A stretch of DNA of 64,000 bases from an uncultured Acidimicrobiia bacterium (GTDB lineage: Bacteria; Acidobacteriota; Vicinamibacteria; Vicinamibacterales; UBA2999): positions 696,265 through 760,264 of the forward strand of contig CAWARO010000006.1 of assembly GCA_963784445.1 (NCBI GenBank), given 5' to 3'. The notes under the pieces are model-generated. The model searched no databases. It was not told the origin of the DNA and was given only the letters and a program-made list of their open reading frames with translations. Numbering within the stretch: the first letter of the stretch is position 1; every line of letters begins with the position of its first letter. A program made the position numbers and the translations under genes. Of this stretch, positions 3,194 through 39,985 are shown piece after piece.

Positions 3194-3208
3194 GCAAGGG
3201 GCATGCCC
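3194..3208 (-). promoter_or_regulatory. Candidate -24/-12 (sigma-54-type) promoter upstream of the FGE gene
   Basis: The minus strand reads GGGCAT-gcccc-TTGCG with exact GG-N10-GC spacing. The GC element lies 25 nt from the ATG at 3169. Confidence 0.35.
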
Positions 3209-3413
3209 GGTGTCGCAGGCGCCGATACCGGCAGTTTAGGCGATTTCTGGCGTGTTTTGCGCGGGGCGAAGACCGGACGCCCACAGACACTGAACGGCGG
3301 CTGTGACTGCTCACCGAATACGGTGGCGTCACGTCCGCTCGAACGGGTCAATGACCGTCCAGTCGTTCGTCGTGTCTACCGATAGCGACAGACGTTTCAG
3401 CGCGATCGAATCG

Positions 3414-4187
3414 TCAGTAACGCGCCTTCACGAAGCGGCGGCGCGCAATCGCCTGGTCATCGTCGTATGCGCCCTTGGTCGACCGGCCGGGAAGCTTCAC
3501 TTTTTCGTTCGGCAGTTTCTTGTACGGGATCACTGAGAGGAGGTGGGCGATGGTGTTGAGCCGCGCGGCCCGTTTGTCGTCCGACCGCACGATGTGCCAC
3601 GGGGCGATGCGGGTGTCGGTCTTCTTCAGCATCAGGTCGCGCGCGCGTGAGTACCTGTACCAACGTTTGCGGGACGGCAGATCCATCGGGCTCAGCTTCC
3701 ATTGCCGCAGCGGATCGTTGATGCGGGCTTCAAACCGGCGCTTCTGTTCGTCGTTACCCACTTCCATCCAGACCTTGATGATGGTGGTTCCTCCTTCAAT
3801 GAGAAACTTCTCGAACAGGGGGCACAGGTCCAGAAATCGCTGTCGCTGCTCCTCCGTGCAAAACCCCATCACGTACTCGACGCCGGCGCGGTTGTACCAG
3901 CTGCGATCGAAAATGACGACCTCGCCCTTCGCCGGAAAATGCTGCATGTAGCGCTGTAAGTACACCTGCGACTTCTCGCGGTCGGAAGGAGCGGGCAAGG
4001 CCGCGATTCTGAACACCCGTGGGCTCAGACGTTCGGTGATGGCGCGAATCGTGCCGCCCTTGCCGGCGCCATCACGTCCCTCGAAGATGATGATCACTCG
4101 CAGGCCCTTCTCCTTGACCCACCTCTGGAGGTGAGCCAGGCGCACCTGCAGTTTATTGAGCTCCTTTTCGTACTTTGCGCGTTTCAT
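3414..4187 (-). CDS. ppk2: Polyphosphate kinase 2 (PPK2)
   Basis: Motifs VIIIFEGRDGAGKGG (Walker A), FDRSWYNRAGVE and the lid region. I chose the ATG at 4187 because it forms an ATGA overlap with the stop of the upstream SulP gene. Confidence 0.85.
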   Translation of the reverse strand: MKRAKYEKELNKLQVRLAHLQRWVKEKGLRVIIIFEGRDGAGKGGTIRAITERLSPRVFRIAALPAPSDREKSQVYLQRYMQHFPAKGEVVIFDRSWYNRAGVEYVMGFCTEEQRQRFLDLCPLFEKFLIEGGTTIIKVWMEVGNDEQKRRFEARINDPLRQWKLSPMDLPSRKRWYRYSRARDLMLKKTDTRIAPWHIVRSDDKRAARLNTIAHLLSVIPYKKLPNEKVKLPGRSTKGAYDDDQAIARRRFVKARY

Positions 4188-5893
4188 CTGTCGCCAGATC
4201 TTTCCGGTGGTTGTCCCACCATTGACGTGTTCTGCTGCCACTTCGCGATGATGCCGTCGACGGTCTGGCCGGTCTCGAGCGTTCCGTATTCCCGCTCGAA
4301 GCCAATTCGTCGCAGCGCGTCACGCACCTCGCCATGCGCGTCGGCAAGCCGGAACTCGAGGCCGCGCGCCCGAAATGTCTTGTGCAGGTCGGCCAGGAGC
4401 TCGGCGCCTGCCAGGTCGATTCTCGGCACCGCGCCGAGAAAAAAGACGATCAACTTCACAGGATCCTGGCGCGCACTCAACAGCTCGAGCAGGCGCTCGC
4501 GGACGAACTCCGCATTGAAGTAAAGGAGCGCTGATTCACAACGGACCACCAGCACACCCGGAACGGATTCGTTTTCCGGGTGCCGGACGCGATCGGCGAA
4601 ATACGTGGTGCCTGGAACCCGGGCCAGCTCGGTGACGCGCGGCCGCGCCGCCTGGCGCAGCAGCAGCACAATCGAGATCGCGGCGCCCAGCAACACGCCA
4701 TTGACGGGACCCGAACCCAGCACGCCGATCAAGGCCGCGATCGCAACCAGGAACTCCGCTCGGCTGAATCGCCAGATGTGCTGGAGGGCGTGAATGTCAA
4801 CGAGGCCCATCACCGCCGCGAGCACGATGGCCGCCAGCACCGGCTGCGGCAGGTTCCGCAACAATCCCGATGCAAAGAGCACGACGATCACAGTGAAGAC
4901 GGCGGCCACGAGGCCCGACACCGGTGTCCGGGCCCCGGCACTCTCGTTGACGAGCGATTGCGACATGCCGCCGCTCACCGGGAAGCCGCGGCCGAGTCCC
5001 GCGGCGAGATTCCCGGCGCCAATCGCCAGCAGCTCCTGATTCGCGTCGAACCGATTGCCGTGCTTCTGGCCGAACATGCGGCCGATGGCGGACGTCTCAA
5101 CGGCGGCGAGGACGAAACCGGCCAGCGCGATCGGCAGCAGCTCGTTCAGATCGCGACGGCTCACGGCCGGCAAACCGAGAGCGGGCAGGCCCTGCGGCAC
5201 TTCTCCCAGCAACGCCACGCCCCGCGCATCGAGGTCCATGAGTCGAGCCGCCAGCATGCCGGCCACGACCACGAGAAACGCCACCGGGCGGTTCTTGAGC
5301 CAAAGCTTGCCCGCGATAAGCATCGTCAGTGCGCTGACGCCGACAAGCAGAGATACTCCGTTCGTGTCGCCCAGATGAGCAACGAAGTAGGCCGAGCGCT
5401 CCCAGAAATCGCCGTGCGTGCCCTTGAACCCGAACAGTTTTGGCAGTTGCGTGCTCGCCAGATACAGGGCCAGACCGCCTTTGAACCCAACCAGCACCGT
5501 CTCCGAGAAGAAGCCGATGGCATTGCCGGCACGGGCCAGCCACGCCGCCAACGCAATCGTAGCGATCATCAAGGTCACGCATGCCGCGAGGGCCGCATGG
5601 CGTGCCGGATCACCAGCGCTGAGATCGCCAACCGACGCGCCGATCAGCAGCGACAGTGCGGAGGTGACCGTAATGACCGTCTGCTTCGAGCTGCAGAAGA
5701 TCCAGAACACCAGCCCCGAAAAGAGGCAGGCGTACAGCCCCGCTTCAGGCGCGAGTCCCGCCAGCGAGGCGTCGCCGATGCCGGCGGGCAGCAGATACGC
5801 AGCCAGCGTCAGTCCCGCCACGAGATCCGGCCGCAGCCACTCGGCTCGATAGTCGCGCACCCACCGCAGCGCCGGGAGTCTCTCCTGGCCCAT
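4184..5893 (-). CDS. SulP-family anion permease with a C-terminal STAS domain
   Basis: N-terminal WLRPDLVAGLTLAAYLLPAGIGDASLAGL, multiple transmembrane segments, and a STAS-like C-terminus (VLVVRCESALLYFNAEFV...). Confidence 0.85.
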   Translation of the reverse strand: MGQERLPALRWVRDYRAEWLRPDLVAGLTLAAYLLPAGIGDASLAGLAPEAGLYACLFSGLVFWIFCSSKQTVITVTSALSLLIGASVGDLSAGDPARHAALAACVTLMIATIALAAWLARAGNAIGFFSETVLVGFKGGLALYLASTQLPKLFGFKGTHGDFWERSAYFVAHLGDTNGVSLLVGVSALTMLIAGKLWLKNRPVAFLVVVAGMLAARLMDLDARGVALLGEVPQGLPALGLPAVSRRDLNELLPIALAGFVLAAVETSAIGRMFGQKHGNRFDANQELLAIGAGNLAAGLGRGFPVSGGMSQSLVNESAGARTPVSGLVAAVFTVIVVLFASGLLRNLPQPVLAAIVLAAVMGLVDIHALQHIWRFSRAEFLVAIAALIGVLGSGPVNGVLLGAAISIVLLLRQAARPRVTELARVPGTTYFADRVRHPENESVPGVLVVRCESALLYFNAEFVRERLLELLSARQDPVKLIVFFLGAVPRIDLAGAELLADLHKTFRARGLEFRLADAHGEVRDALRRIGFEREYGTLETGQTVDGIIAKWQQNTSMVGQPPERSGDR

Positions 5894-5897
5894 TGGT

Positions 5898-6560: not shown

Positions 6561-6565
6561 CGTGT

Positions 6566-8310: not shown

Positions 8311-8327
8311 GGCTCCGCAGGCATCCA

Positions 8328-8342
8328 GCAAGAGGACTGCCA
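8328..8342 (-). promoter_or_regulatory. Candidate sigma-54 promoter for the CAX-VIT-OMP-SulP-PPK2 operon
   Basis: The minus strand reads TGGCAG-tcctc-TTGCT with exact spacing. The GC element lies 18 nt from the ATG at 8310, which implies a very short leader. Confidence 0.45.
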
Positions 8343-8506
8343 CCGATGCGAGACGAATCTCGCGTCCAATACTGAAGAGATTGACACTCACCTGGTCGGC
8401 CTGACTGCCCCTTGTCAGGGGGATCACAGCCTGCCGTCACGGATGCGACGAGCGCTCCCGTACACAATTGCGAGCACCGATTTCCGACCATCGATGTCGT
8501 TGAACA

Positions 8507-8522
8507 CGGCGCTGAATTTGCA
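8507..8522 (+). promoter_or_regulatory. Candidate sigma-54 promoter for the TRIC channel gene
   Basis: CGGCGC-tgaat-TTGCA, with the GC element 25 nt upstream of the ATG at 8546. It lies back-to-back with the 8342 motif. Confidence 0.4.
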
Positions 8523-8545
8523 GCCCGATCAGGTTCTGAGCGACC

Positions 8546-9216
8546 ATGACTGACGCCGTCTTTCAAGTTCCGCCGGCCTTCGATTACCTGGCGACCTTGA
8601 CTTGGGCGTCGAGCGGGGCCTTGGTCGGCATCCGCAAACATTTCGACGTCGTCGGTGTCTTTGTGATCGCGCTGGTCTCCTCAGTGGGGTCCGGCCTGGT
8701 GCGTGACGCCTTATTTCTGCAACGCACGCCCGTCCTCCTGACCGATCCCGTCTACTTGCCGCTCATCGCCGGGACCGTGATCCTCTTCGGTCTGTTCTCG
8801 GGGCCGCTCACGCGCGTGGCCACGGCCGACACGGTGCAAAAGATGATCGATATCATTGACGGCGTCGGGATCCCCATCTTCGCGGTGATCGGGATGCAGC
8901 TCGCCGAAGAGCGCGGCATTCCGGTGACCGGCATCATCTTCATCGGCGTCGTCAACGGCACCGCCGGCGGCTTGCTGCGTGACGTGCTGGTCCGCGACGT
9001 GCCGGCCATCCTGCGGCCGGGTCAGTTCGTGTCACTGTTGCTGCTGTGGCGTGTGTGTCGTTCGTGGCACTGAAGCAGTATGCGGATGTCACCGTCTCGC
9101 AAGCAGCGTGGGCGGCAATCAGCACCTTCTTTGTCCTCCGCGTGCTGACGATCCGCTTCAATTGGACGACCCGCTCGGTGCTGCCGGAATCGCTCGGCGG
9201 CGACCCCGGCGCGTAG
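8546..9216 (+). pseudogene. TRIC/UPF0126 (YadS/YicG-like) cation channel, frameshifted near 9025-9035
   Basis: Two UPF0126 repeats (SGALVGIRKHFDVVGVFVIALVSSVGSGLVRD and IFAVIGMQLAEE...GTAGGLLRD). The last helix (VAAVACVSFVALKQY...RVLTIRFNW) continues in another frame to the TAG at 9214-9216. Confidence 0.7.
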
Positions 9217-9229
9217 CACTCGATTGCGT

Positions 9230-12721: not shown

Positions 12722-14476
12722 TTACGAGAGCAGGATGATCAGGACCATGCCCCAGATCGTCAGCAACGTGTTGCCGACGGCATACGTCACGGTATAGCCG
12801 AGCGCCGGCACCTGGCTCTTGGCCTGATCGCACACCAGACCGAGTGATGCCGTCGTCGTGCGCGAGCCCGACACGATGCCGAGCGTGAGCGCGTCGTGGA
12901 AACGGAACACGTATTTCGCCACGAACATGCCGAGCACCAACGGCACCGTCGTCGCGAGCGCGCCCCACAAGAACAGGCCTGCGCCTTGCGTCCTCAGGCC
13001 ATTCACGAAGCCAGGGCCGGCGGAGATGCCGACGATGGCGATGAAGATGTTGAGGCCGACCGAGTTCATGAACCAGACGGTCGGCGTCGGCACGCGTCCG
13101 AATGACGGGCGGACGGATCGCAGCCACCCGCCGATGATCCCCGCGACCAGCGCGCCGCCGGCGGTCGACAGTGTCAGCGGTACGCCGCCAACGTTGAGGA
13201 CGATCGCGCCGAACAGGGCGCCGACCGTGACGAACAAGCCGACGAACGCCATGTCGGCGACGTCGGTCGCGCGATCGGGGACACCCAGCAGCTTGATGGC
13301 TTTGTTGGTGTCCTGCGTGCGTCCGACAATCGTGAACAGATCGCCGCGGTTGATCGTGGTGGTCGGCAAGATGGGGATGTCCGTCGCGGTCGCGCCGCGC
13401 GTGATCTTGCGCAGGAAGACGCCGCGCGTCTCCGGCATCTGCACCAGGTCGACCAGCGTCTTGCCGTCGATCGCCTTGTTGCTGACCAGGACGTCGACGC
13501 CCTCGACCGGCATCGCCAGCAGCTCCCGATCCTCGACCTCGAGCGCGTTCGGTCCTAGTAACGACACGAGCGCGTCGCGGGAGCCCGCGACCGCCACGAC
13601 GTCGTTCTCGGCCAGAACGGTATCCGCGGTGGCCTCCTCGATCTTCCCGTTGCGGCGGATACGCAGGACGAACAGGCGTGTCGCCGGCGCCACCGATGTT
13701 TTCTCGAGGACTTGCACGCCGCCACCGGCCTGCGCGGCGAGTTGCCGTTGCGCCACCATCGACTCAGCCTCGACGACGCTCAATCCGGCGGCCGCTCCGC
13801 CAGGCAGAACTCGGTATGCCCGCACTTCCCAGCGCCGCCACGCCGTGCCGGGGCCGCCAAGTTCCTTCACGCCGCCTTGCTGCTGTTCGTAGTCCTTGCA
13901 CGCCGCCTCGAGATTGATGCCGAGCAGCTTGGGGCCCAGCACCGCGATGATGACGGCCGAGCCCATCGTGCCGAACATGTAGGTGACCGCGTACGCGACC
14001 GGCATGGAGTCGATCAGGGCCTTGGCCTGCTCGGCGGCCATGCCCGCCCGATTGATGGCGTCGGTCGACAGGCCCATCGCGGCGGAGATCGTTTGCGAGC
14101 CCGAGTAGAGCCCGGCCGCATAGCCGAGGTCGTAGCCGGCCAGCCTTGCGATCGCGAAGGGGACCAGCAGGCAGAAGAGGCACTGCACCACGGAAAAGAG
14201 CGCCTGTGGTACGCCGTCGCGCGCAATGCCGCGAACGAACTGCGGCCCAACGCCGTAACCGACTGCGAACAGGAACATCAGGAACACCGTCGCCTTGAGC
14301 GGCTGTGCGATGGTGATCCCGATCTGCCCGATCAGGACGCCGGCCAGGAGCGTCGCGGTGACGGAGCCCAGGCCGATGCCCTTGAACGTGAACTTGCCAA
14401 AGTAGTAGCCAATGGCAAGCGTGAGGAAGATCGCAATCTCCGGATACTGCTTCAGCGTCGCAAAGAACCAATCCAT
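12722..14476 (-). CDS. AAE-family transporter (AspT/YidE/YbjL-type), copy 2
   Basis: [37 protein letters not shown], with the same two-half plus TrkA_C architecture as the gene at 9230..10909. Confidence 0.8.
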
Positions 14477-14488: not shown

Positions 14489-16906
14489 CTAGCTGCCTGC
14501 CAGCGCGGGTGCCGGCTTAGCCTTCTCCGACTTGTCCGACTTCTCCGACTTCGCCGCCTTCCCCTCCAGCGCGCTGGGACTAATGAGCTTCAGTCCCAGG
14601 GTGGCGTCGTAGCCGTGGATCTCTTTCACGTCCAGCTTGCGCATGAACTCGATCGTGTCGGCCTTGATCACCTGTCCCGGCACCATGATCGGGAAGCCTG
14701 GCGGGTACGGGATCACGAAGTGCGCCGAGACCAGCGGCGGCCCGGACTGGATCCGCTTGTCGATCTCGGGGCTCATCAGCTTGATATGCTCGCAGCCGTC
14801 GTGGTCGTAGGCCATGTAGAACGCGGTGCGCATGTCGCCCTCGAGCGTCGAGCCCTTCGGGTCGTCGCGGAACCGATCGTGGAAGTGGCTGAAGTTGGGC
14901 AAGTTCGGAACGTCCTCGACCAGCGACTTCACCCGCGCCGCAAATGCCGTGCGAGCCGCATCACCGCCGCTCTTGAGACGCTGCTCGATCTCATTGGAGA
15001 TCTCGACGAGCACCTTGAGCAGGTTGGCCACGTCGCTGCGAGTGTTGTTGATGTTGGTCTGCAGCAGGATCGAGTTGCGCGAGGTCTTGTTGAGCTGAAT
15101 CTCGTACTCGTTGGCGAGCAGGCCCTTGAACTGGGTGCCGTCGTAGCCGGCGGTCCCGCACATCAGGGTCAGCCGCGTCGGGTCGAGGATGAACTCATCC
15201 TCACGGAATGCTTTCGCCGCGTCCGCCCAGGTGGCGCCACCCTCGGTGTAGCTCTTGAGACCGGACTGCCGGAACTCGGCCGGCACCATCTGCTCGACGT
15301 CCAGGACCTTGAAGTACTTGGACACGAGCGGATGCGTGTTGACCGCGACGCGGATCTCGATCGCGAGCTGGATGGCCTGCATGACCATCTCGTAGCCTTC
15401 CAGTTCCATCTGGCGGCGCGCCACGTCGAGCGACGCGATGATCTGCTGGTTCGGCGACGTCGAGGCGTGCGTGAACACCGCTTCCTTGAAAGCCTGTTCG
15501 TGGCGGTGGTAATCCTCGTCAGCGACCAGCACCATCGATCCCTGGCGGAGCGCCGACATCGACTTGTGCGTCGAATTCGTCTGGTAAATGCGCAGCTTGG
15601 CCTTGCGCGGATCGGGAATCAGCCGCGTGTCGAGCACCCGCGCGTCCTTCGGATCGAGATCGGCGCCGAGCTGCTTCTCCTGCGCGAGGTATCGCTCCAG
15701 ATAGGCGGGGTCGGCGAAGGCCTCTTTCAGGGCCGCGCGCGCGCCCATCGCCGTGCGCGGCCGGTAGAGCGGTGACCAGCGAGCGAAACCGAACCAGGCT
15801 TCGTCCCACAGGAAGATCAGGTCCGGCTTGATCGCCAGGCACTCTTCCATCACGCGCCGCACGTCGTAGACGTGGCCGTCGAAGGTGCAGTTGGTCAGCG
15901 TGACCGTCTTCACCTTGTGGAGCCGGCCCGCCGCCTTGAGATCGAGCAAGCGCCTTCTTGACGTTGCGCAACGGCACGGCGCCGTACATCGAGTACGCCA
16001 CCATCGGGAAGGCCTCGACGTAGTAGGGCTGTGCGCCCGCGAGCACCATGCCGTAGTGGTGCGACTTGTGGCAGTTGCGATCGGCAATGACGATGTCGCC
16101 GGGCTCGAGGAGCGCCTGGTGGACCATCTTGTTGGAGGTCGACGTGCCGTTGGTCACGAAGAACACGCGATCGGCGCCGAAGGCGCGCGCGGCGGCATCC
16201 TGGGCCTTCTTGATGTTGCCGGTCGGCTCGAGCAGGCTGTCCAGTCCGCCGGAAGTAGCCGACGATTCCGCGAGGAACAGGTTGGCCCCGTAGAACTCGC
16301 CCATGTCGCGGATCCAGTTCGACTTGAAGATCGACTTGCCGCGCGCCACCGGCAGCGCGTGGAACGTGCCGACCGGCTTCGCGGCGTACTTCTTCAGGTT
16401 GTTGAAGAACGGCGTGTCGTTGCGCTCGGCCACGCCGGAGAGGATCGATAAGTGAATCTCGAGCGGCTCCTCGACCTCGTAGAAGACGCGGCGGATGCCG
16501 GCCGCGGCCGGGTCCGAGATGATCGCGTCGGGCTTCTGGTCGGCGAGCAGGATGATGTCGAGCTCGGGCCGGAAGCCCTTAATGAGTTTCGCCAGCATCG
16601 ACGCCGTCGGCGCCGGCCGCGCGGTTCTTCAGACTCCGCGGACAGCCGTGACGACAGCAGGCTCTTGAGCAGCGGCACGTCGCGCGAGGATTCGTAGGGG
16701 AAGCCGTCGTAGATCACGACCGACTCGAGGTTGGTGTTGAGGATCACGGCGAGCGCCGCGTCTTCGAACGAGCCGACGAACACGGGCTCGTAGACGAACT
16801 CGTCCTCGGGACGGCGCAGCTTCCTGATCTGCTGGGCGTGTGTGGCCCAGCGGGAGGGCGGCGTGTTCGTGACGAACAACACCTCGAAGTACGGGTCTCG
16901 CGGCAC
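14489..16906 (-). pseudogene. Large Orn/Lys/Arg decarboxylase family enzyme (PLP-dependent), split by at least 2 frameshifts (about 15953 and 16600-16640)
   Basis: Three colinear ORFs. ORF 16394..16906 holds the wing domain (YFEVLFVTN). ORF 15519..16598 holds FHALPVARGKS and FFVTNGTSTSNK. ORF 14489..16087 holds NSTHKS (PLP-binding Lys) and IPYPPGFPIMVPG. The junction NVKK|RLLDLK is restored by dropping one G. Confidence 0.8.
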
Positions 16907-17313: not shown

Positions 17314-18475
17314 CTAGGACGGGAAGTTGAAGCGAATTGCGAACTGGATGCGATTGGCCGTGCCCTCTTCGCCACTGGCGACCTCGCGGCGGCCGTAGAG
17401 ATACTCGACGCCGGCCCACGCCCGGTCGGGCAGGAACCAGTAGAGGAGATTGACGGCGCCGTAGTTGAGTTCCTTGTTGAACAGGGACGGGTAGTACCGG
17501 CTCGTCCGGCGTCGTCGTCACGCTGAAGACCGCATTCGAGGTCACTCGCGATGACCAGTAGTGCTCGTAGCCGCCCATGAACGCGGTGAGGCCCACGGGC
17601 TGCAGCTCGCCGTTGCTGTCAGGGATCGCGGTCACGCCGCCGCGGTAACGGCCGACGCCGTCGCCGAAGGTGATTTGCCCGTAGGCGTAATCACGGCCGA
17701 ACGTCTTGACCCTGCCCGACAAGAGGCTGCCCCACAGCGAGACGTCGTCAGGCTCACCAACCGTCGGGCGGAAGCGCGCGCGGCCGAGAAAGGCGGAAGC
17801 AAAGACGTGCCCGCGCCCCCCTTCGAACTTGACCCGCGTGGCCAGGTCCGGCATCGAGTACTCGGCCCTGCCCGGCACGTCCGCCGGTGTGGTGATCGAT
17901 GACTTGTTGTCCTCGACCGCCACGGACCATGACGTCTGGGCGCCGAGCTTCGCCGTGAAGCGCGCCTGCGCCTGCCGGATTGAGGGGAAGGCCATCGGCG
18001 ACTCGAAGTCGATCGTGTTGGGGAAATTCGCGTCGTCCACGAAAGTGGACCAGGCCTGTCCCGCCATCAGGCCCTTGTAGCTCCCAAAGGCCTGGCGCAG
18101 GCGTATCACATTGCCGCTGCCGTAGAAGTCGGTTTCCAGGTACATCCGTAACTCGCTGCCCTCGACCGGGCCGCGCATGTCGAGAGTCAAGCGCGTCTCG
18201 CGGGCATGAACCTGCGAGTTGGTGCCCTCGCTCCCATCAACCGGGATGGTGCGCGGGTCGAAGCTGTCTTCGGAGGTAATCGGATCGAAGTCCCGGATCA
18301 CATCGAGCTTGATTCGTCCTCCGGGCTTGAAGACGAACGATCCGATCCTGAAGCCATCGAATTCCGGTTGCGCGGCTGGCGTCTGCGCGTCGGCCGAGCC
18401 GATCGCGACCAGGAGAACCGTCGCTGCCACGACCCCCCTCAACACACCGATCCTTGTTGCTTGAACCCGTCGCAT
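17314..18475 (-). pseudogene. DcaP-like outer-membrane porin, with a +1 frameshift near 17497
   Basis: Signal peptide MRRVQATRIGVLRGVVAATVLLVAIGSADAQ, then RETRLTLDMRG, YLETDFYG and LMAGQAWSTFVD. The C-terminal strands (YYPSLFNKELNYGAVNLLYWF...IRFNFPS*) are in the +1 frame after GAGCCG-G-TAC. Confidence 0.7.
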
Positions 18476-18519: not shown

Positions 18520-18534
18520 GCAATTCGACTGCCA
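18520..18534 (-). promoter_or_regulatory. Candidate sigma-54 promoter for the porin-decarboxylase-AspT-AsdA-AspT operon
   Basis: The minus strand reads TGGCAG-tcgaa-TTGCT. The predicted leader is about 33 nt and contains GAAGGAG-N6-ATG (18475). Confidence 0.55.
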
Positions 18535-18702
18535 TCGCCGCGGGCGAATCTGGGCCCAAAAGACTCAATGAAAAGAGGTCGCCCGAAGTGTCTTTACCGG
18601 CCCTCGTCAGCGCCCTCACAACATGCCGTCACGGACCAGGGCAGCGGAGAACTGCCGACATCGCGGGAAGCCAGCTTTGGGCCCATCCGCGCTCGCTAGG
18701 CG

Positions 18703-18718
18703 CGGCTCCGAACTTGCA
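18703..18718 (+). promoter_or_regulatory. Candidate sigma-54 promoter for nrfHA
   Basis: CGGCTC-cgaac-TTGCA with exact spacing. The GC element is only 15 nt from the ATG at 18732, so the mRNA would be nearly leaderless, which lowers my confidence. Confidence 0.35.
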
Positions 18719-19220: not shown

Positions 19221-19223
19221 AAC

Positions 19224-20645: not shown

Positions 20646-20671
20646 CAGCGGAGAATCTGTCTTCGCGAGCG

Positions 20672-29845: not shown

Positions 29846-30421
29846 CTACTTGGTCTTCTTGACCTCCTTCAGCTGAACGACCTCCGCGCCATAGTCCTCG
29901 ACAACGAACGCGGCCTGATTCATCTTGATCTTTGCGGCAGGCGCGATGGTGCCAGTGCCGTTGCCCTTGGCATCGACCGTGATGTCAATCACCGCAAACT
30001 CATAACCCGCTTGTGGCTTGGCGCCCGGCACGCCGGCGCCGAGAAACAACAGCGGCTGATCGGTGATGATCGTCACCAGCCGGCCGTCGCCGATCGCGCG
30101 CTCCAGGGTGAGTCGCGTTGGCGTGGCCTTGCCCGTCCCGATCTGAACGGTGCCAGTGGGCGCGACACCCACGAGCGCTTTTCGCAACGCCGCCGGGCCG
30201 CCGGACGTGAACGCGGCGACGAGTCCGTCCGCCTCGCTTTGGGACATCTTGCGGGCGATCGAGATGGTTACCGGCGCGCTCGCCGATGCGCCGGCCGCGG
30301 TCTTCACGGCCGCTGTGGCCGTAAACACTTCGGCAGTCCCCTGTGCACGCAGGGACGCGGGCGCCATCAGTACGACGCCGGAAATCACGATGGTGCCAAT
30401 CATCCTGGATGTGACGGTCAT
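29846..30421 (-). CDS. Exported protein of unknown function (family X, paralogue of 38203..38808)
   Basis: Signal peptide MTVTSRMIGTIVISGVVLMAPASLRAQG. Colinear with 38203..38808 through EVFT[AG]TA, GYE[FV]AVI[DE], KG.GTG and [DE]DY[GA]EV. GGAGAGG-A7-ATG lies upstream. Confidence 0.6.
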   Translation of the reverse strand: MTVTSRMIGTIVISGVVLMAPASLRAQGTAEVFTATAAVKTAAGASASAPVTISIARKMSQSEADGLVAAFTSGGPAALRKALVGVAPTGTVQIGTGKATPTRLTLERAIGDGRLVTIITDQPLLFLGAGVPGAKPQAGYEFAVIDITVDAKGNGTGTIAPAAKIKMNQAAFVVEDYGAEVVQLKEVKKTK

Positions 30422-30464: not shown

Positions 30465-30479
30465 GCAATCCACATGCCG
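30465..30479 (-). promoter_or_regulatory. Candidate sigma-54 promoter for family-X gene 29846..30421 (and possibly the downstream pentose-phosphate operon)
   Basis: The minus strand reads CGGCAT-gtgga-TTGCT, with a predicted leader of about 32 nt that contains an SD sequence. Confidence 0.5.
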
Positions 30480-30625: not shown

Positions 30626-30641
30626 TGGCACGGCCCGTGCT
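30626..30641 (+). promoter_or_regulatory. Candidate sigma-54 promoter for the DUF3302-HlyD-NodT operon
   Basis: TGGCAC-ggccc-GTGCT, with the GC element 26 nt from the ATG at 30666. It lies back-to-back with the 30479 motif. Confidence 0.5.
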
Positions 30642-30665
30642 CAGCCGATGCTGCAGGTAGGTTTG

Positions 30666-31238
30666 ATGATGTCGAATCCTCGTGCTCTCAATGCACCGAC
30701 CGCGGCGCATGGCGCCTCGCGTGCCGTCTTCGCCGTCGTGCTCGCCGGCCTATGGTCGCTCGGCCTGCCAGCGACGGCACAGGCCTCCCTGCTGTCGCCC
30801 GAAGCCGAAGACGCCATGGCGAAATACGTCGCGATCTTCGCGCTCTGCTTCGTGCCCGTGGTTCTGATCGTTCTGTTCTGGATGGTGCACGTGATGCCTG
30901 AGAAGATCGCGCATAAGCGGCATCATCCGCAGGCCGAAGCCATCCACACGTTGTGCCTGCTGTCGCTGGTCTTCGGTGGATTGCTGTGGCCCATCGCGTG
31001 GCTGTGGGCGTACACCAAGCCGGTCGGCTACAAGCTGGCCTACGGCACCGACAAGCATCCCGACTACTTCAAGGAGCACGGCCTTGAGGAGCCGGCGAGC
31101 CCGACGGCCGACATCAGGCAGCGGGTCGCCGCTCTCGAAGAGCATGGAGTGCCGGCGAGTGAGCTCGACGCGATCCGCACCGATCTCGCCGCCATCGAGT
31201 CGCGACTCGCGGCAGCCGACCGGAGCGAGGCACGCTAA
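30666..31238 (+). CDS. DUF3302 (YiaW-like) inner-membrane protein
   Basis: AKYVAIFALCFVPVVLIVLFWMVHVMPEKIAHKRHHPQAEAIHTLCLLSLVFGG. It sits directly upstream of a YiaV-like HlyD gene, as in E. coli yiaWV. The start (30648, 30666 or 30669) is uncertain. Confidence 0.65.
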   Translation: MMSNPRALNAPTAAHGASRAVFAVVLAGLWSLGLPATAQASLLSPEAEDAMAKYVAIFALCFVPVVLIVLFWMVHVMPEKIAHKRHHPQAEAIHTLCLLSLVFGGLLWPIAWLWAYTKPVGYKLAYGTDKHPDYFKEHGLEEPASPTADIRQRVAALEEHGVPASELDAIRTDLAAIESRLAAADRSEAR

Positions 31239-32509
31239 TGGAAGTCATCCTGCTCGGCATCTATGCCTCGATCGTTTGGCTGATCTTCATCAAGTTCAAG
31301 CTGCTGCCGTGGACGACGCCGTGGAAGGTCGGCGTGGCAATCTTCCCGGTGGTCGTGTTGGCGGCGACCATACTGCTCCTCAACATCTTTGCGCCAACGA
31401 CCACCGACGTCAGGGTGGTGAAGTACGTGGTGCCGATCGTGGCGCAGGTGAAGGGACGCGTGATCGAGGTCCCGGTTCAGAACAACCAGGTCGTGAAGAA
31501 GGGCGACGTGCTGTTCCGCATCGACCCGACGCCGTACGCGAGCGAAGTACGCGCCCTCGAAGCACAGTTGGTGTCCGATGAGGCAAAGGTTGGTGCTGAG
31601 CGGGCCCGGTATGGCGAAACCGAGACGCGCCTACCGGATGCCCAATCGGGCGAGCGGCAGCTGAACGAACAACTCAACCAGGCGACGAGCCAGATTGCCT
31701 CGCTGCAAGCCTCACTCGAACTCGCGCGTCGTCGTGTGGCGCAGAACACCGAGCTCGCCGCCGCCGGCGCCGGGAATCGCTTCGACCTCGAGCAGGCACA
31801 GACGAACGTCAACGAACTCACCGCGCAGATCGCTGCGGCGCGCGCCGTGGAACAGCAGGTGCGGGAAAAACTGTCGGGCCGCATCAGGGGCGATCTTGCG
31901 ACCGTCGCCGGTGTCAAGGCCCAGATCACGACGGCGAACGCGCAAATTCGCGTCGCGCTCGCACAAATGGAGTCGACGCGCGCCAAGCTCGAAAATGCAC
32001 AATGGAATCTCGACCAGACCACCGTGGTCGCGCCGAGCAACGGCACCATGGTGAACGTGATGCTCCGGCCAGGCTATTTCGTGACCGGAGTCGCGTTCAA
32101 CGAGGTGATGACGTTCGTCGACACCGAATACCAGGTGTTCGCGTTGTTCAACCAGAACGAGCTGCACCAGGTCGAGCCCGGGAACGAAGCGGAGATCACG
32201 CTCGACACCTACCCCGGCCGCATCGTCAAGGCACACGTGGATTCGGTGATCTGGGCGCAGGCCCAGGGGCAGATTGATGCCTCGGGCAACCTTCCCACGA
32301 CCACGGTCGCTGCGCCACCGGGGCGGTTCCCGGTGAAGCTGGTGGTCGCCGAACGCGACCACCAATTGTTCCTGGCCGCCGGCGCCCGCGGCTCCGCGGC
32401 CATCTACACTGAGCACCTCGCGCTCATTCACCTGATCCGAAAAGTGCTGCTCAGAACGGCGTCGTATCTCGACTACGTAATCATCAAGCACCACATCAGC
32501 CTCCACTGA
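31238..32509 (+). CDS. HlyD-family membrane-fusion (periplasmic adaptor) protein, YiaV/AaeA-like
   Basis: N-terminal transmembrane segment, lipoyl-like VKGRVIEVPVQNNQVVKKGDVLFRIDPTPY, a long coiled coil and a beta-barrel domain. TAATG start/stop overlap with the DUF3302 gene. Confidence 0.8.
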   Translation: MEVILLGIYASIVWLIFIKFKLLPWTTPWKVGVAIFPVVVLAATILLLNIFAPTTTDVRVVKYVVPIVAQVKGRVIEVPVQNNQVVKKGDVLFRIDPTPYASEVRALEAQLVSDEAKVGAERARYGETETRLPDAQSGERQLNEQLNQATSQIASLQASLELARRRVAQNTELAAAGAGNRFDLEQAQTNVNELTAQIAAARAVEQQVREKLSGRIRGDLATVAGVKAQITTANAQIRVALAQMESTRAKLENAQWNLDQTTVVAPSNGTMVNVMLRPGYFVTGVAFNEVMTFVDTEYQVFALFNQNELHQVEPGNEAEITLDTYPGRIVKAHVDSVIWAQAQGQIDASGNLPTTTVAAPPGRFPVKLVVAERDHQLFLAAGARGSAAIYTEHLALIHLIRKVLLRTASYLDYVIIKHHISLH

Positions 32510-32519
32510 AAGACGGCCC

Positions 32520-33980
32520 ATGGCTTGCCCTCACCTGACGACCCGGCGCCGGCTTCGCGCCGCCGCAACCCCGCTCGCGACTGGACTGGTGGCGGCCATG
32601 ATCTCCGGCTGCGTCCTGAAGAACGCCCCGGATGCGACGGCCATTAAGGAGCAGGCGCTGCCCGCACTGCAGGCTCCCGCGGAGTGGACCGTGGCCGCTC
32701 CGGGCGTGCCGGGCGTGGGTGCGGTCGTCACCGGTTGGCTCGACGCGTTCAACGACGATCAATTGACGGCGGCCGTGACCGAAGCGATCGCGCACAACGC
32801 CGATCTGCGCGTCGGCGCCGCGCGTGTCGAGCAGGCGCAGCTGCATGCCAAGCTGGCGGGCGCCAAGCTCTGGCCGGCGGCCGACCTGCTCGCACGCGGC
32901 GGCGGCAAGATGTCCGGCGACGGTTCGGGCCTGCAGGGCGGCGTGCTGTCCGTCACCTGGGAAGTCGATTTGTGGGGCCGCGTCCGTTACGGCCGCGCGG
33001 CCAGCGCCGCGCAGGCGGCGTCGGCGGCGGCGGACTTCGAGTATGCGCAGCAATCGATTGCCGCCCTCGTGGCGAAGAGCTGGTTCCTGGCCATCGAGGC
33101 GAGCTTGCAGGCCGACGCAGCACGCGAGACGATCCGGTCGAACGAGGAGCTGGTCCGGCTCTCGGACGAGCGCGCGCGTATCGGGGTCGGCAATCAGGCC
33201 GATGTCTACTCGGCGCGCGCCACGGTCGGCTCCTACCGCGACCTGCTCCGCCAACTCGAGTTGGCCCGCAACGAAGCGATTCGCGCCCTCGAGCTCATGC
33301 TCGGGCGTTACCCGGCGGGTGCCGCCGCCACCTCGCTGCAGTTGCCGTCGTATCCCGGCTCCGTACCTGCCGGGCTCCCGTCAGAACTGCTCGAGCGCCG
33401 GCCGGATGTGATTGCCGCTGAGCGTCGCGTGGCGGCGGCGTTCAACCGCATTCACGAAGCCAAAGCGGCCCGGCTGCCGGTGATTTCGCTGACGACTGGC
33501 CTCAGCGCGATCTCGAGCGATCTGTTCCTGCTCAAGGATCACGACAACCCAGTCTGGAACGTCGGCGCCAGCCTGCTCGCGCCGCTGTTTCGCGGCGGCG
33601 CGCTCAAGACCCAGGTCGAGATTCGCACCGCGGAACAGAAACAGGCCATCGCCGAGTACGCCGTGATCGGGCTGCGTGCCTTCGGAGAAGTGGAAGCGGC
33701 ACTGGCGGCCGAGTTCGCGGCGCGCGATCGTGAAGAGATCCTGGCCGAGGCGTTCTCCAATAATCAGCAGGCGCTGACGATGGTGCAGACACAATTCAAG
33801 ATCGGCAGCACCGATCTCCGGTTCGTCGAACAGCGTCAGCTGGCGGTCGCCTCATCACGTTCCGCGCTGATTCGCGTGCAGGCCGAGCAGCGCATCCAAC
33901 GCGTCAATCTCCATCTCGCGCTGGGCGGAAGTTTTGCGGTCCCGCCGCCGCCGCCAACAACCGCGCCGCCGCCCCGCTAA
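32520..33980 (+). CDS. NodT-family outer-membrane efflux lipoprotein
   Basis: Lipobox AMISGC, WLDAFNDDQLTAAVTEAIAHNADLR, and two OEP repeats. Confidence 0.85.
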   Translation: MACPHLTTRRRLRAAATPLATGLVAAMISGCVLKNAPDATAIKEQALPALQAPAEWTVAAPGVPGVGAVVTGWLDAFNDDQLTAAVTEAIAHNADLRVGAARVEQAQLHAKLAGAKLWPAADLLARGGGKMSGDGSGLQGGVLSVTWEVDLWGRVRYGRAASAAQAASAAADFEYAQQSIAALVAKSWFLAIEASLQADAARETIRSNEELVRLSDERARIGVGNQADVYSARATVGSYRDLLRQLELARNEAIRALELMLGRYPAGAAATSLQLPSYPGSVPAGLPSELLERRPDVIAAERRVAAAFNRIHEAKAARLPVISLTTGLSAISSDLFLLKDHDNPVWNVGASLLAPLFRGGALKTQVEIRTAEQKQAIAEYAVIGLRAFGEVEAALAAEFAARDREEILAEAFSNNQQALTMVQTQFKIGSTDLRFVEQRQLAVASSRSALIRVQAEQRIQRVNLHLALGGSFAVPPPPPTTAPPPR

Positions 33981-35047: not shown

Positions 35048-35049
35048 AA

Positions 35050-36252: not shown

Positions 36253-36298
36253 CGCGTGACCCTTTCGAACGCCGCTCTCGCTCCCCCCATGCTGGCCG

Positions 36299-37075: not shown

Positions 37076-37088
37076 GGTTGTGCCTCGC

Positions 37089-37592
37089 TCATTTGACGAT
37101 CGGAAGGGATGCGGCGATCTGCAGATCGATGATCAGCAGCAGCTGGTTCTCGACCTGGAGAAATTGAGCCGCGGTCTTGGCCGACAGCGCCGTTTTGAGA
37201 CGCGCATAGTATTTTTGTTTGAGCGCGGTACGGCGGCCCTCGAGCTCGAGCGCTTTTGTCGCCAGCTTGTCGGCGAGCGCTTCGCTCACCTTCTCGTAGT
37301 TGCGCGCGTACTCTTCGATGCCCGCCACGCGCTCGTCGTTGATCGCCGACAGCTCGACGTCGTACGCGCGATAAATCGGCCAGAAGACCTTGTCTTCCGC
37401 GTCAGTGAACGCCATTAACTCGGTGAGGAAGGCCACTTTCTGCGCGCGCACGTCAGCCCTCAACAGCTCGACGTAGGCACTCAGGTTCAGATCCTTCGTC
37501 TCGGCCGGCGTCACGGCCGGCTGCTGCGCCGACACGACCGTCGTCACCGTCATGATTGCCAGAATCACACCAGGCCGCAGTGGGTTCGTCAT
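37089..37592 (-). CDS. Periplasmic all-helical protein of unknown function
   Basis: Signal peptide ending VSAQQ, with helical heptad-like sequence through to the end. Overlaps the upstream gene by 4 nt. Confidence 0.55.
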   Translation of the reverse strand: MTNPLRPGVILAIMTVTTVVSAQQPAVTPAETKDLNLSAYVELLRADVRAQKVAFLTELMAFTDAEDKVFWPIYRAYDVELSAINDERVAGIEEYARNYEKVSEALADKLATKALELEGRRTALKQKYYARLKTALSAKTAAQFLQVENQLLLIIDLQIAASLPIVK

Positions 37593-38206
37593 TTTCGGGC
37601 CAATCCTTGTTTCTGAAGTTCCTTCACGGACTCTTTCACCAGATCTGTCACGAAACGTTGCAGGGTCTTGGGATTCCTCGTCTCACTAACGCCCGCCCAC
37701 AGCAACTTGTTGCGCGCGACCGAGAAGATCAGGGTCTCCACGGTGATGACGGTGTCTTTGTCGACACCGCCGATCACCACCACACTGGTGTAGCCGTATC
37801 CGTAGTAGCCCCAAAAGGTGTTGTACGACGGGCTCAGCCACAGACTGTCGTTATAAGAGATGCGTTTCTCACTGCTCACCGGCCGCAACGCGACAACACC
37901 TTCGACGTTGGCTTTCTCGAACCACCCTCGTGCGCGATCGGCGCTTTGCAGTTCTTCCTTTGGCGCAATGCGATAGGTGGCCACGGCTTGCAGGCCGCGA
38001 GCGGTCAGCTCGGTGACGAGCGATTCCTCGCCAGCGACCCGCAGCGAGTCGTCCTGGGTAATGACGAGCGCCGCGATTTTCTTGCCGGCGAAACTGACTT
38101 GCGCGGCATCGGGCGATTTCCACACCGACTTGAAGTCGGGCGCGGCCGACACCACGGCCACGGCCGCGAGGGCCGCTGTGACAGTCGTGATCAGGGAGCG
38201 CGTCAT
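37589..38206 (-). CDS. Exported DUF4136-like protein
   Basis: Signal peptide, a Gly/Tyr-rich loop (FWGYYGYGYTS), then TLIFSVARNKLLWAG and a C-terminal helix. The layout resembles 39400..39933. Confidence 0.55.
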   Translation of the reverse strand: MTRSLITTVTAALAAVAVVSAAPDFKSVWKSPDAAQVSFAGKKIAALVITQDDSLRVAGEESLVTELTARGLQAVATYRIAPKEELQSADRARGWFEKANVEGVVALRPVSSEKRISYNDSLWLSPSYNTFWGYYGYGYTSVVVIGGVDKDTVITVETLIFSVARNKLLWAGVSETRNPKTLQRFVTDLVKESVKELQKQGLARK

Positions 38207-38808
38207 GATGGCTTCCGCGCGATGTTGGTCAACGTGATGAGCACCTCGGCGTAGTCGTCGAGCAACACGCCGCCGTCGCCATCGGGCCGGACCCGTGCCG
38301 CCCCGGCCATCGATCCGGTGCCCGCGCCCTTCGGGTCGATGCGCATTTCGATCACCGCGACTTCGTAGCCCTTGCGCGGCGCCGACTCCGCCCGGCCACC
38401 GCCGATGAAGTAGGCGGGTTTGTCGGTCACCACAACGACCGTTCGGCCCGTGGCGTCGACTTTCTCGCGGGCATACCGGATCGCGATGGGCGCGCCTCCG
38501 GCGAGCACGAGTTGGCCGACTTCAGGAGCATTGCGAATCGCGGTGAGAAACCGCGGATAGCCGCCTTCTTTCAGCGCGGTCTCGACGGCCTTCTTGTCGA
38601 ACTCCGGCGTCATGCGCCGCAGCCTGACTTCCAGCGTGCCCGACACCGCCCCGGTAGCGTTTTTTGCGTTCGCGGTGCCGGTGAACACTTCCGGCTGGCT
38701 CGGCGCCTGGGCGCCGACCTGGGTCGGGACGCCAAGCAGGAGCACGATCGTCAACGTCGTCGCGATTTGCACAACTACTCCTCTAGCCGTCACTAGCTTT
38801 TCTTCCAC
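38203..38808 (-). CDS. Exported protein of unknown function (family X, paralogue of 29846..30421)
   Basis: Signal peptide, EVFTGTANAKNATG, GYEVAVIEMRIDPKGAGTG and DDYAEVLITL. Overlaps both neighbouring genes. The start (38808 or an internal GTG) is uncertain. Confidence 0.6.
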   Translation of the reverse strand: MEEKLVTARGVVVQIATTLTIVLLLGVPTQVGAQAPSQPEVFTGTANAKNATGAVSGTLEVRLRRMTPEFDKKAVETALKEGGYPRFLTAIRNAPEVGQLVLAGGAPIAIRYAREKVDATGRTVVVVTDKPAYFIGGGRAESAPRKGYEVAVIEMRIDPKGAGTGSMAGAARVRPDGDGGVLLDDYAEVLITLTNIARKPS

Positions 38809-39341
38809 CGGCTGACCGAGAGCGCCGCGCCGTTCTCGTCCTTGGTCGTGAGCGTCAGGACGTCACCCGCCACCTCCCAATGCCGCGGCCGGTTTGGCGA
38901 CAGCGGTCCGCCGCCGGTCTTCATCGCCGAGGGCTGTCCTTCGAGAATGTAGGTGAGCGTGCGGTTCTGCATGTCGACCGCGGTGCGGCCGCTGGTCGAG
39001 ATCACGCCGTCGGGAATCACGAGGCCTCCGGCGCGCAGCAGATCCGACGAGGCCTCATCCGCCTTGACGTTCATCTCCAGGTTGCCGAAGCCGTCGTAGT
39101 TGAGAACCCCGGTGCCCTTCAGCGTGATCGGCTTCGCGCCGACGGGAGTGATCACGAACGACTCGAGGAGCCAGCGGCCCTCGAGAAACTTGCGCGCCGC
39201 CGCCGTCGTGCCGGCGCCGTCGGGCACCGGGCCCATCGACACCACGCGCTGCCGTTCCGATGCCGCGCAGCCCATCGCGGCCGTCAGCAATGACACCGCA
39301 AGGGCGGCTTTCCAAACCCGTTGCACACTCATCGTCTGCAC
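38793..39341 (-). CDS. Lipoprotein of unknown function (lipocalin-like size)
   Basis: Lipobox LLTAAMGC, 182 aa, beta-rich. Confidence 0.6.
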   Translation of the reverse strand: MQTMSVQRVWKAALAVSLLTAAMGCAASERQRVVSMGPVPDGAGTTAAARKFLEGRWLLESFVITPVGAKPITLKGTGVLNYDGFGNLEMNVKADEASSDLLRAGGLVIPDGVISTSGRTAVDMQNRTLTYILEGQPSAMKTGGGPLSPNRPRHWEVAGDVLTLTTKDENGAALSVSRWKKS

Positions 39342-39399
39342 CTCGCTCGCCTTCCGGCGTCACGAACCGCCAGCGGTGAGCCGATTGTCGCGGAGAGGT

Positions 39400-39933
39400 C
39401 TACTTCGTCTTGGCCACGGGCGGAAAGTTCTTGAACATCTTCGTCGCGGCCTTCTCCAGCCGGCTTTTGTTCTTGTCCGGGTTGTCGGAGATCTCGTCCT
39501 CGGCAGTGCCCCTGAACACGAGGTTCTTGTTCGAGGCGTTGAACATGTCGACCACCAGCGTGCCAACGGTGTATTCGCTCACCACCGTCGTGGCCGTGCC
39601 CATGCCGCCGAAGCCGCGGTAGCCGTAACCACCCATGCCGCTGTAGTGGGTGCTGGCGTTGCGCTTGGCCTGCGTAGCGCCGTGCAGGACCACGATGATG
39701 TTCGGGTTGTCGGCGACTTTCTTCCAACCCTTGGCGGCGATCTCCTCGTCGAATTCGGCGAGCACGCGGCGCTGCGACAGGTCATTGCCCCACGTCGTCC
39801 CGATGGCGATCGAATAGGTCTTCACCGTCGAAAAGTCGAATGCCTTGTCGAAATCGATCTTGACGTCCTGTGCCGCGGCCAGCGCCGGGATCATGAGGAG
39901 CGAAGCAGTGATCAGTGAGCGTAACGTGTTCAA
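39400..39933 (-). CDS. DUF4136 domain protein (exported)
   Basis: Motifs YSGMGGYGYRGFGGMG, YTVGTLVVDMFNASNKNLVFRGTA and KMFKNFP. I chose the TTG at 39933 because AGGAGG-N6 precedes it and the ATG at 39969 overlaps the -12 promoter element. Confidence 0.7.
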   Translation of the reverse strand: MNTLRSLITASLLMIPALAAAQDVKIDFDKAFDFSTVKTYSIAIGTTWGNDLSQRRVLAEFDEEIAAKGWKKVADNPNIIVVLHGATQAKRNASTHYSGMGGYGYRGFGGMGTATTVVSEYTVGTLVVDMFNASNKNLVFRGTAEDEISDNPDKNKSRLEKAATKMFKNFPPVAKTK

Positions 39934-39970
39934 GATGGGCCTCCTGGGTTGTGTCCGGCACGATCGCATC

Positions 39971-39985
39971 GCAAAGAGCGCGCCA
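39971..39985 (-). promoter_or_regulatory. Candidate sigma-54 promoter for the eight-gene operon 39933..33977
   Basis: The minus strand reads TGGCGC-gctct-TTGCG with exact GG-N10-GC spacing. The predicted leader is about 26 nt and carries AGGAGG. The GAF-EBP gene lies 0.8 kb upstream. Confidence 0.55.

Follow-up and report, generated by a model that had tools for sequence, protein, structure and literature searches.

RNA polymerase holoenzyme containing sigma-54 binds GG and GC elements and cannot open DNA on its own; an AAA+ enhancer-binding protein is needed. The site recognized by NifA is TGT-N10-ACA and that recognized by NtrC is TGCACC-N5-GGTGCA. In Desulfovibrio vulgaris Hildenborough, the divergent sigma-54 operons orp1 and orp2 are served by the activator DVU2106, with palindromic activator sites at -88 and -131, IHF sites between enhancer and promoters, and the activator gene nearby, and both operons are expressed simultaneously (PMC3897727). 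Many further sigma-54 promoters are predicted in D. vulgaris (PMC3897727). Activators number 12 in Escherichia coli and 53 in Myxococcus xanthus, and a connection of sigma-54 with the bacterial exterior is reported (PMC3162934). We found no description of sigma-54 regulons in Acidobacteria in the searchable literature. Here we describe a computational analysis of a 64-kb stretch of contig CAWARO010000006.1 (assembly GCA_963784445.1), from an uncultured bacterium placed in the Acidobacteriota, order Vicinamibacterales; this whole stretch is referred to as the window. Nine -24/-12 motifs occupy 39 kb of it, and we consider it likely that they are genuine sigma-54 promoters that form one regulon island with a shared enhancer-like palindrome and a GAF-domain activator.

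The island resembles orp1/orp2 in having back-to-back sigma-54-type promoters, palindromic sites between them, and an activator gene nearby. It differs in that back-to-back pairs occur four times in 39 kb and have a common enhancer motif, in belonging to another phylum, and in the GAF-type N-terminus of the putative activator; in addition, IHF is only suggested here, by an AT-rich block in one of the pairs, and the island is known from sequence alone. With glnAp2/NtrC and nifH/NifA it shares GG-N10-GC elements, an upstream palindromic enhancer that is often present as two sites about two helical turns apart, helix-face dependence, and an AAA+ GAFTGA activator with a Fis-type helix-turn-helix. 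Unlike those systems, the enhancer reads TCAC-N8-GTGA, several predicted leaders are very short (3–13 nucleotides [nt]), and the targets are transport, envelope, acid-resistance-like, and redox functions rather than nitrogen assimilation or fixation. The mechanism proposed is a classical one. Novelty lies in the lineage, in the enhancer motif, in an island that packs nine operons compactly, and in enhancers that are repeatedly used in both directions.

Eight of the nine motifs had been listed in a first-pass annotation of the window, and all eight were recovered with the sequence, strand, and coordinates given there (Table 1). Start codons were fixed by ortholog N-termini and Shine-Dalgarno sites. 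Those of CAX (8310) and nrfH (18732) were both confirmed by ortholog N-termini, and the others include porin at 18475, DUF3302 at 30663, family X at 30421, and a TTG at 39933 for DUF4136. After this check, all eight motifs were intergenic and faced the adjacent gene. Six of them form three divergent pairs, namely CAX/TRIC (pair 1), porin/nrfH (pair 2), and family X/DUF3302 (pair 3), with distances from -24 to -24 element of 165, 169, and 147 base pairs (bp), matching the earlier count. The pattern had been written with an N8 gap, which was a miscount; the constant spacing is real, and the shared pattern is GGC-N7-TTGC. An exhaustive scan found a ninth site that had been missed, AGGCCC-acttt-TTGCG, which is divergent from the DUF4136 promoter at 39985 (149 bp from GG to GG) and gives a fourth back-to-back pair. 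All nine sites read GGC-N7-(T/G)TGC: GGC (-25 to -23) and TGC (-14 to -12) are invariant, T(-15) is present in eight of nine, and four to six of seven flanking positions agree with the consensus.

The sites coincide with transcription-unit starts. Every start between 1.9 and 40.7 kb (9/9) has a -24/-12 motif, and none of the roughly 10 starts elsewhere in the window has one; the density is 1 promoter per 7 kb. Four of the six divergent intergenic regions in the window have both promoters, none has a single one, and two have neither. For eight promoters in twelve slots, a hand calculation puts the chance of this pattern at p ~0.03.

An origin of the motifs as chance hits, selected by visual inspection of GC-rich intergenic DNA, is hardly conceivable, and for the set as a whole this explanation is refuted. 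Two observations speak for it: GGC-N7-TTGC is only mildly more frequent than expected across the window (23 matches versus 15.4, with 7 of 100 shuffles reaching 23), and sites that agree at four of seven flanking positions are common at control spacings. However, eight of the 23 matches are intergenic, where 0.83 +/- 0.92 were expected. This test used a curated 3,856 nt of intergenic DNA (6% of the window) and 2000 dinucleotide-preserving shuffles, none of which reached eight (maximum 5). The excess was confined to one spacing, as intergenic GGC-N(k)-TTGC occurred eight times at k=7 and zero to two times at every other k from 0 to 15. Ortholog conservation and co-occurrence with a phased palindrome, both described below, also argue against chance. 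Coding DNA contained 14 matches in 60 kb. The equal density in coding DNA that the first-pass annotation had set against its own reading was not seen, as the motif was ~16 times denser upstream of genes.

A consensus score gave the same peak. We rated GG-N(gap)-GC occurrences on seven flanking positions against a fixed consensus (T-GG-CAC..TT-GC-W), and window upstream DNA contained five sites at gap 10 versus zero to one at gaps 8, 9, 11, and 12; in coding DNA there was no excess at gap 10. Across 16 related Acidobacteriota loci (33 kb of upstream DNA), 26 sites were found at gap 10 versus zero to two at the same control gaps. In 36 loci of other phyla, recovered with the same query, there was no excess (10 at gap 10 versus 7–11), and we therefore interpret the signal as belonging to this lineage. 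As a separate observation, motifs scoring at least 5/7 inside genes, both in the window and in all loci, were rarer at the true spacing than at gaps 8, 9, 11, and 12 (6 versus 8–13, 20 versus 28–47, and 72 versus 95–110); spurious sites could be under negative selection, or the deficit could be no more than an effect of codon phase.

Single-spacing enrichment, ortholog conservation, and the adjacent gene for a GAFTGA-bearing activator together support the claim that the motifs are sigma-54-type promoters. It is very unlikely that the motif is instead read by an extracytoplasmic function (ECF) or housekeeping sigma factor, or is a transcription-factor site. To our knowledge, no promoter consensus has been established by experiment in Acidobacteriota, which leaves room for such a factor, and a scan of positions 1–60,000 with the E. 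coli sigma-70 consensus found nothing above chance, a result that neither supports nor excludes further promoters. Against this stand the invariant GGC and TGC, the nearly invariant T(-15), the exact spacing, and the match to TGGCAC-N5-TTGC, together with the activator gene and the lack of enrichment at neighboring spacings. We also know of no other sigma family that uses two elements 10 bp apart.

Conservation supports most of the sites individually. The nearest public sequences are metagenome-assembled genomes (MAGs) of uncultured Acidobacteriota or Vicinamibacterales of soil origin, and three loci (L127, L128, and L039) are syntenic with the window at 87%–94% identity. For the DUF4136 promoter, a metagenome scan yielded 56 loci, and in an alignment of 24 related upstream regions TGGC-N7-TTGC forms a conserved island 34–37 nt before the DUF4136 start, with variable leader and flanks. 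The ninth site is conserved in these ortholog regions, on the opposite strand, as GGGCGCGGTTCTTGCG. Pairs 1 and 2 are both conserved in L127 and L128, where insertions and deletions leave the motifs intact. The CAX promoter is the same in these two loci apart from a change in the spacer. The TRIC motif is kept in the same two loci, and in L128 10-nt deletions on both sides spare it. The porin and nrfH motifs are identical in L127. Sigma-54-type motifs were also found upstream of eight of 10 Acidobacteriota porin orthologs, at varying positions, and upstream of nrfH orthologs in L002 and L039, where they occur at other positions, with the palindrome upstream of them, in regions that cannot be aligned. 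The FGE promoter and its upstream module are kept in L127, where they precede a sulfatase gene and not FGE. At the DUF3302 promoter, GGCACGGC.CGTGCTCAG is kept in L070 amid unalignable flanks, and the ortholog in L130 has TGGCACGGTCCGTGCT 21 nt before its start codon. Three loci (L039, L004, and L057) have CAX without the promoter; the gene there lies behind a potassium-channel-like gene in an operon, and these loci are uninformative for the CAX site.

The distances from the -12 C to the start codon (Table 1) place some predicted transcription starts very close to the gene, with leaders of ~3 nt for nrfH and ~6 nt (GGAGCC) for CAX. A strong Shine-Dalgarno site is present where the predicted leader is 26–33 nt (porin, family X, and DUF4136) and missing where it is 3–13 nt (nrfH, TRIC, and FGE), a pattern that tracks leader length and is consistent with transcription starts set by these promoters. 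Across loci, the spacing between the -12 C and predicted start codons showed no sharp peak because the start-codon calls were too noisy; hence leaderless sigma-54 transcripts are not proposed here as a class.

The DUF4136 ortholog alignment also contained a conserved palindrome, TCACcGCATGTTGTGA, which corresponds to window positions 40025–40040. With both strands counted, the window contains exactly three matches to TCACA.C.TGC.GT.A (at 8424, 18616, and 40025), each of them between divergent promoters. A common motif, TCAC-N8-GT(G/C)A, lies in the spacers of pairs 1, 2, and 4 and again upstream of the FGE promoter. In pair 1, the centers of the two copies are at 69.5 and 91.5 nt when measured to the CAX -24 G, and at 99.5 and 77.5 nt when measured to that of TRIC. 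The corresponding values in pair 2 are 69.5 and 91.5 nt for porin, a geometry identical to that of CAX, and 103.5 and 81.5 nt for nrfH. In both pairs the second copy is 22 bp to the left of the main copy. The pair 1 block is kept in L127 and L128, the main copy of pair 2 is fully conserved in L127, and the FGE palindrome is kept in L127 as TCACCAAATACGGTGA, at ~113 nt. A copy with one mismatch lies ~105 nt upstream of the DUF3302 promoter in L130.

These copies bear on the proposal, made in the first-pass annotation, that one activator site could serve two promoters and that each pair has its own activator. The first part is supported, since the palindrome lies between the promoters in pairs 1, 2, and 4, and similar pairs recur in relatives. 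The second part was not borne out, since these three pairs and FGE carry the same palindrome. The three palindromes on which it was based do sit at the coordinates reported. The one assigned to pair 1, CCTGAC-N8-GTCAGG, fits the shared motif (TGAC-N8-GTCA), and on the simplest reading it is a weaker duplicate that lies 22 bp away from the main copy. The one assigned to pair 3, TGGGGC-N6-GCCCCA, is not conserved in the DUF3302 ortholog regions of L070 or L130. The two TGGGCCCA sites of pair 2 are statistically notable, as the only two copies in the window, and stand near -47 of each promoter, but only one is kept in L127. Their centers, ~22–23 nt from the -24 G, are too near the promoter for a classical enhancer.

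We consider it quite unlikely that the divergent pairs are independent units, every one with a palindrome and an activator of its own. Such an arrangement would fit the different short palindromes in each spacer, the lack of the shared palindrome in pair 3, and the symmetrical placement of TGGGCCCA in pair 2 only, and several paralogous activators could share a similar half-site. Yet the same 16-bp motif is found in three pairs and at FGE, with identical geometry at CAX and porin; 6-nt inverted repeats are common in ~200 bp of GC-rich DNA (4–8 per region); and the window contains only one activator gene.

Association of the palindrome with the promoter motif extends beyond the window. In 1.7 Mb of window and comparison sequence, searched for a palindrome 20–250 nt upstream of the motif, 65 unique palindrome-promoter pairs were found at spacing 10 versus two to six at control spacings. 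Inner positions outside the search pattern were conserved as well (C7 and G10 at 89%), giving TCACnRCATGYnGTGA. Within the Acidobacteriota loci, 34 of 113 consensus-like sites had a palindrome 40–140 nt upstream, versus four per spacing control, and the palindrome-linked sites are about equal to the whole excess of sigma-54 sites. Tandem copies lie 20–22 bp apart. Palindrome-promoter distances cluster near 50, 61, 72, 82, 92, 103, and 114 nt, with a Rayleigh peak at 10.5–10.75 bp (z = 20). This periodicity indicates that natural insertions and deletions come in whole helical turns, and enhancer looping predicts exactly such spacing.

These results bear on another possibility, in which the promoters are sigma-54 dependent but TCAC-N8-GTGA is bound by a repressor or by a nucleoid or bending protein, with enhancers elsewhere or with the GAF activator serving only pair 4. 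We regard this as unlikely. Copies 50 nt from the -24 element are nearer than many classical enhancers, and the link between palindrome and activator is one of neighborhood. On the other side, the association is exclusive to sigma-54-spaced motifs, the distances are phased at ~10.5 bp, and the copies come in tandem, with two half-sites that suit a dimeric Fis-type helix-turn-helix domain. Palindromic, phased, and tandem sites are the usual features of enhancer-binding protein sites in NtrC- and NifA-type systems.

The gene that adjoins pair 4 (40761–42407) encodes a predicted sigma-54 enhancer-binding protein and is the only activator gene of its class in 64 kb. The protein has the GAFTGA loop, the part that makes contact with sigma-54. 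Orthologs that are 93%–94% identical in the core lie near the DUF4136 pair in L075 and L083, and a GAF match is recorded for the one in L075. Among NCBIfam models, the protein is nearest to NifA, NorR, and FhlA but below each family cut-off, and we therefore assign it neither a name nor a signal. We propose it as the likeliest activator and as the candidate palindrome binder, a link drawn from its neighborhood. Between the pair 4 palindrome and the ninth site lies a conserved AT-rich inverted repeat; in relatives, this block contains ATTCAATTTGTTG, one mismatch from WATCAANNNNTTR, and the match in the window is weaker. A DNA-bending protein, IHF for instance, may bind here. We saw nothing comparable in pairs 1–3.

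From these observations we infer sigma-54 dependence, a palindrome-binding protein, and a signal, as follows. RNA polymerase with sigma-54 would read the nine motifs and start every transcription unit between ~1.9 and 40.7 kb. By unit, the functions encoded are transport of cations, phosphate, and sulfate; TRIC; a porin with amino-acid decarboxylase and antiporter; nrfHA; pentose-phosphate enzymes; efflux; envelope lipoproteins; and FGE. An AAA+ protein would bind TCAC-N8-GT(G/C)A, often at two copies 20–22 bp apart, on one helix face 50–115 bp upstream of the -24 element. DNA looping would bring the bound activator to the closed complex, which it would then open at the expense of ATP. In the four intergenic regions with outward promoters, one bound activator could fire both operons. 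If the GAF protein is the activator, the 39-kb island would be one regulon that responds to one GAF-sensed signal.

Several points weigh against reading the island as a single sigma-54 regulon. The FGE site, the weakest match, and the ninth site agree with the flanking consensus at only four of seven positions, a score at which about half of the hits, judged by control spacings, are chance. The ninth site now faces a decayed gene in the window. Homologs of family X in related loci yielded no orthologous upstream region, and the family X promoter has no comparative support. Leaders of 3–6 nt, as predicted for nrfH and CAX, are unusual for sigma-54 promoters. Pair 3 contains no copy of the palindrome within three mismatches. 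As for phasing, DUF4136 orthologs alone give p = 7e-7, which is not a true probability because the sequences are related; loci outside this group give a modest p ~0.03, with an agreeing phase offset (8.0 versus 8.1 nt), and the TRIC promoter is 3–4 bp off the common helical phase. No rpoN is present in the window, and no RpoN-box peptide was found in the window or the comparison loci; the GAFTGA-bearing activator is indirect support for sigma-54 in this genome. Because most comparison loci were recruited via genes of this island, the densities describe the island and not the whole genome.

A wider generalization is tentative, and we think it less probable than not. It holds that TCAC-N8-GTGA places a sigma-54 regulon of unusual size, in Vicinamibacterales-like Acidobacteriota, under one enhancer-binding protein with a GAF domain or under tightly related paralogs that share a single DNA specificity. 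The regulon would take in whole islands of several operons with sigma-54 dependence at every start, enhancers would routinely serve two divergent promoters, and some transcripts would be nearly leaderless.

Table 1. Coordinates of promoter motifs, palindromes, and associated genes in the 64-kb window (SD, Shine-Dalgarno site)
Feature	Position	Strand	Sequence	Unit served or remark	nt from -12 C to start codon	SD
FGE promoter	3194..3208	-	GGGCAT-gcccc-TTGC	FGE (sulfatase-maturing enzyme) gene, 1925-3169	24 (ATG)	none
FGE enhancer-like copies	3291-3306; 3311-3326		TGAA-N8-GTGA; TCAC-N8-GTGG	weaker copies; centers 92.5 and 112.5 nt from -24 G
CAX promoter	8328..8342	-	TGGCAG-tcctc-TTGC	operon CAX-VIT1-unknown-SulP/STAS-PPK2, 8310 down to 3414	17 (ATG)
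Pair 1 tandem palindromes	8402-8417; 8424-8439		TGAC-N8-GTCA; TCACAGCCTGCCGTCA
TRIC promoter	8507..8522	+	CGGCGC-tgaat-TTGCA	TRIC channel gene, 8546-9073	24 (ATG)	no strong SD
TRIC, 3' end frameshifted	8546-9073; 9055-9216			frameshift-split
Orn/Lys/Arg decarboxylase, two reading frames	14489-16087; 15519-16598			frameshift-split
Porin promoter	18520..18534	-	TGGCAG-tcgaa-TTGC	operon DcaP-like porin, Orn/Lys/Arg decarboxylase, AspT-like, AsdA-like, AspT-like, 18475 down to 9230	44 (ATG)	GAAGGAG
TGGGCCCA site	18551..18558		TGGGCCCA	centered ~22 nt upstream of porin -24 G (about -47)
Pair 2 tandem palindromes	18594-18609; 18616-18631		TTAC-N8-GTCA (weak); TCACAACATGCCGTCA
TGGGCCCA site, second copy	18678..18685		TGGGCCCA	mirror position upstream of nrfH promoter; reads TGGGCCAA in L127
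nrfH promoter	18703..18718	+	CGGCTC-cgaac-TTGCA	nrfH-nrfA, 18732-20791	14 (ATG)	none
nrfA, two reading frames	19388-20791; 20088-20645			frameshift-split
Family X promoter	30465..30479	-	CGGCAT-gtgga-TTGC	family X, ROK kinase, 6PGD, G6PD, GH63-like, transketolase and onward, 30421 down to ~20672	43 (ATG)	GGGAGAGG
DUF3302 promoter	30626..30641	+	TGGCAC-ggccc-GTGCT	DUF3302-HlyD-OEP efflux operon, 30663-33980	22 (ATG)
DUF4136 promoter	39971..39985	-	TGGCGC-gctct-TTGC	envelope operon, 39933 down to 33977: DUF4136, four small unknown proteins, Gly-zipper protein, unknown protein, AI-2E transporter	37 (TTG)	AGGAGG
Pair 4 palindrome	40025-40040		TCACAACATGCGGTGA	center 49.5 nt from DUF4136 -24 G and 101.5 nt from ninth site -24 G
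AT-rich inverted repeat	40079..40122		AATTCAA-N9-TTGAATT in relatives	between pair 4 palindrome and ninth site
Ninth promoter	40132..40147	+	AGGCCC-acttt-TTGCG	divergent from DUF4136 promoter
DUF481-like apparent remnant	40220-40420			66 aa, signal peptide; downstream of ninth site
Small conserved gene	40443-40736			downstream of ninth site; STAS-like by eye, no family match
Sigma-54 enhancer-binding protein gene (predicted)	40761..42407	-		N-terminal GAF-like region, Sigma54_activat (AAA+) with GAFTGA, AAA_lid, HTH_8
DUF1592/PSD-domain protein, two reading frames	51354-53315; 53053-53583			frameshift-split

The window has a G+C content of 64%–65%, and we mapped ~57 genes in it by codon statistics and Pfam; Rfam and tRNA scans of the whole window gave no match. 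Four genes (nrfA, the decarboxylase, TRIC, and the DUF1592 gene) are split, and their halves match consecutive parts of a family profile or the homologs are longer. These splits are probably long-read assembly indel errors and not true pseudogenes. Downstream of the ninth site's counterpart, L075 has complete Phenol_MetA_deg and DUF481 genes for outer-membrane proteins, and the short open reading frame at 40220–40420 in the window looks like a remnant of the genes present there.

Several neighboring features were observed alongside the island. The porin/decarboxylase/AspT/AsdA operon shares ~65%–90% DNA identity with MAG loci labelled Acidobacteriota, Verrucomicrobiae, Rokubacteria, beta- and gamma-proteobacteria, and Planctomycetota, which suggests a horizontally mobile module resembling an acid-resistance system. 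The same gene families are clustered in a different order in L130, so the operons travel together. The proteins here called family X (29846–30421 and 37089–39341) have no Pfam or NCBIfam match. Related loci contain homologs, which in some (L075, L077, L078, L079, and L083) lie within or next to the DUF4136 envelope operon region, and the family appears to be a lineage-specific group of secreted proteins. Directly upstream of a homolog in L070 (~17880–17985) is a heptamer tandem repeat, AGAACCN, of at least 13 copies.

Other observations concern the flanks of individual promoters. Positions 3328–3372, which separate the FGE enhancer copies from the stop codon of PPK2, are near-identical in L127 and contain a palindrome, GGTCAATGACC, and an inverted repeat, CGAACG/CGTTCG; this block could be a terminator or another binding site. 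A small potassium-channel-like gene with a TVGYGD signature precedes CAX in the same orientation in L039 (~13460–13940), L004 (~13560–13900), and L057 (~13460–13690); at this position the window, L127, and L128 instead have the promoter pair and the divergent TRIC gene. Another class of DUF4136 orthologs (L085, L087, L088, L096, L097, L100, L106, L108, L113, L114, and L122) has no -24/-12 motif and carries a conserved GTTCCGCTCAACA...CGGCCCATGTCGGGCCG block just before the Shine-Dalgarno site.

In its predicted heavy use of sigma-54, in coming from a soil or anaerobic bacterium, and in the predominance of cell-exterior targets, the island resembles M. xanthus and D. vulgaris. Its targets are mostly transport and envelope functions, which fits the theme of the bacterial exterior (PMC3162934). 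The difference lies in regulation: those species have many activators with few promoters each, whereas nearly all of the sigma-54 excess here carries one enhancer motif. Within the island at least, this pattern suggests a single activator, or a set of close paralogs, acting on many targets.

Acidobacteriota are among the most abundant soil bacteria, and the predicted nine-operon regulon would join ion homeostasis, a decarboxylase/antiporter module, nitrite reduction, pentose-phosphate enzymes, efflux, and the envelope. Enhancer-promoter insertions and deletions in ~10.5 bp steps offer evidence for helical phasing from natural sequence variation. The palindrome together with the -24/-12 motif provides a simple signature for predicting co-regulated genes in soil MAGs. 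If the density seen in the window held more widely, sigma-54 would be a major, not a niche, route of transcription in an abundant soil lineage.

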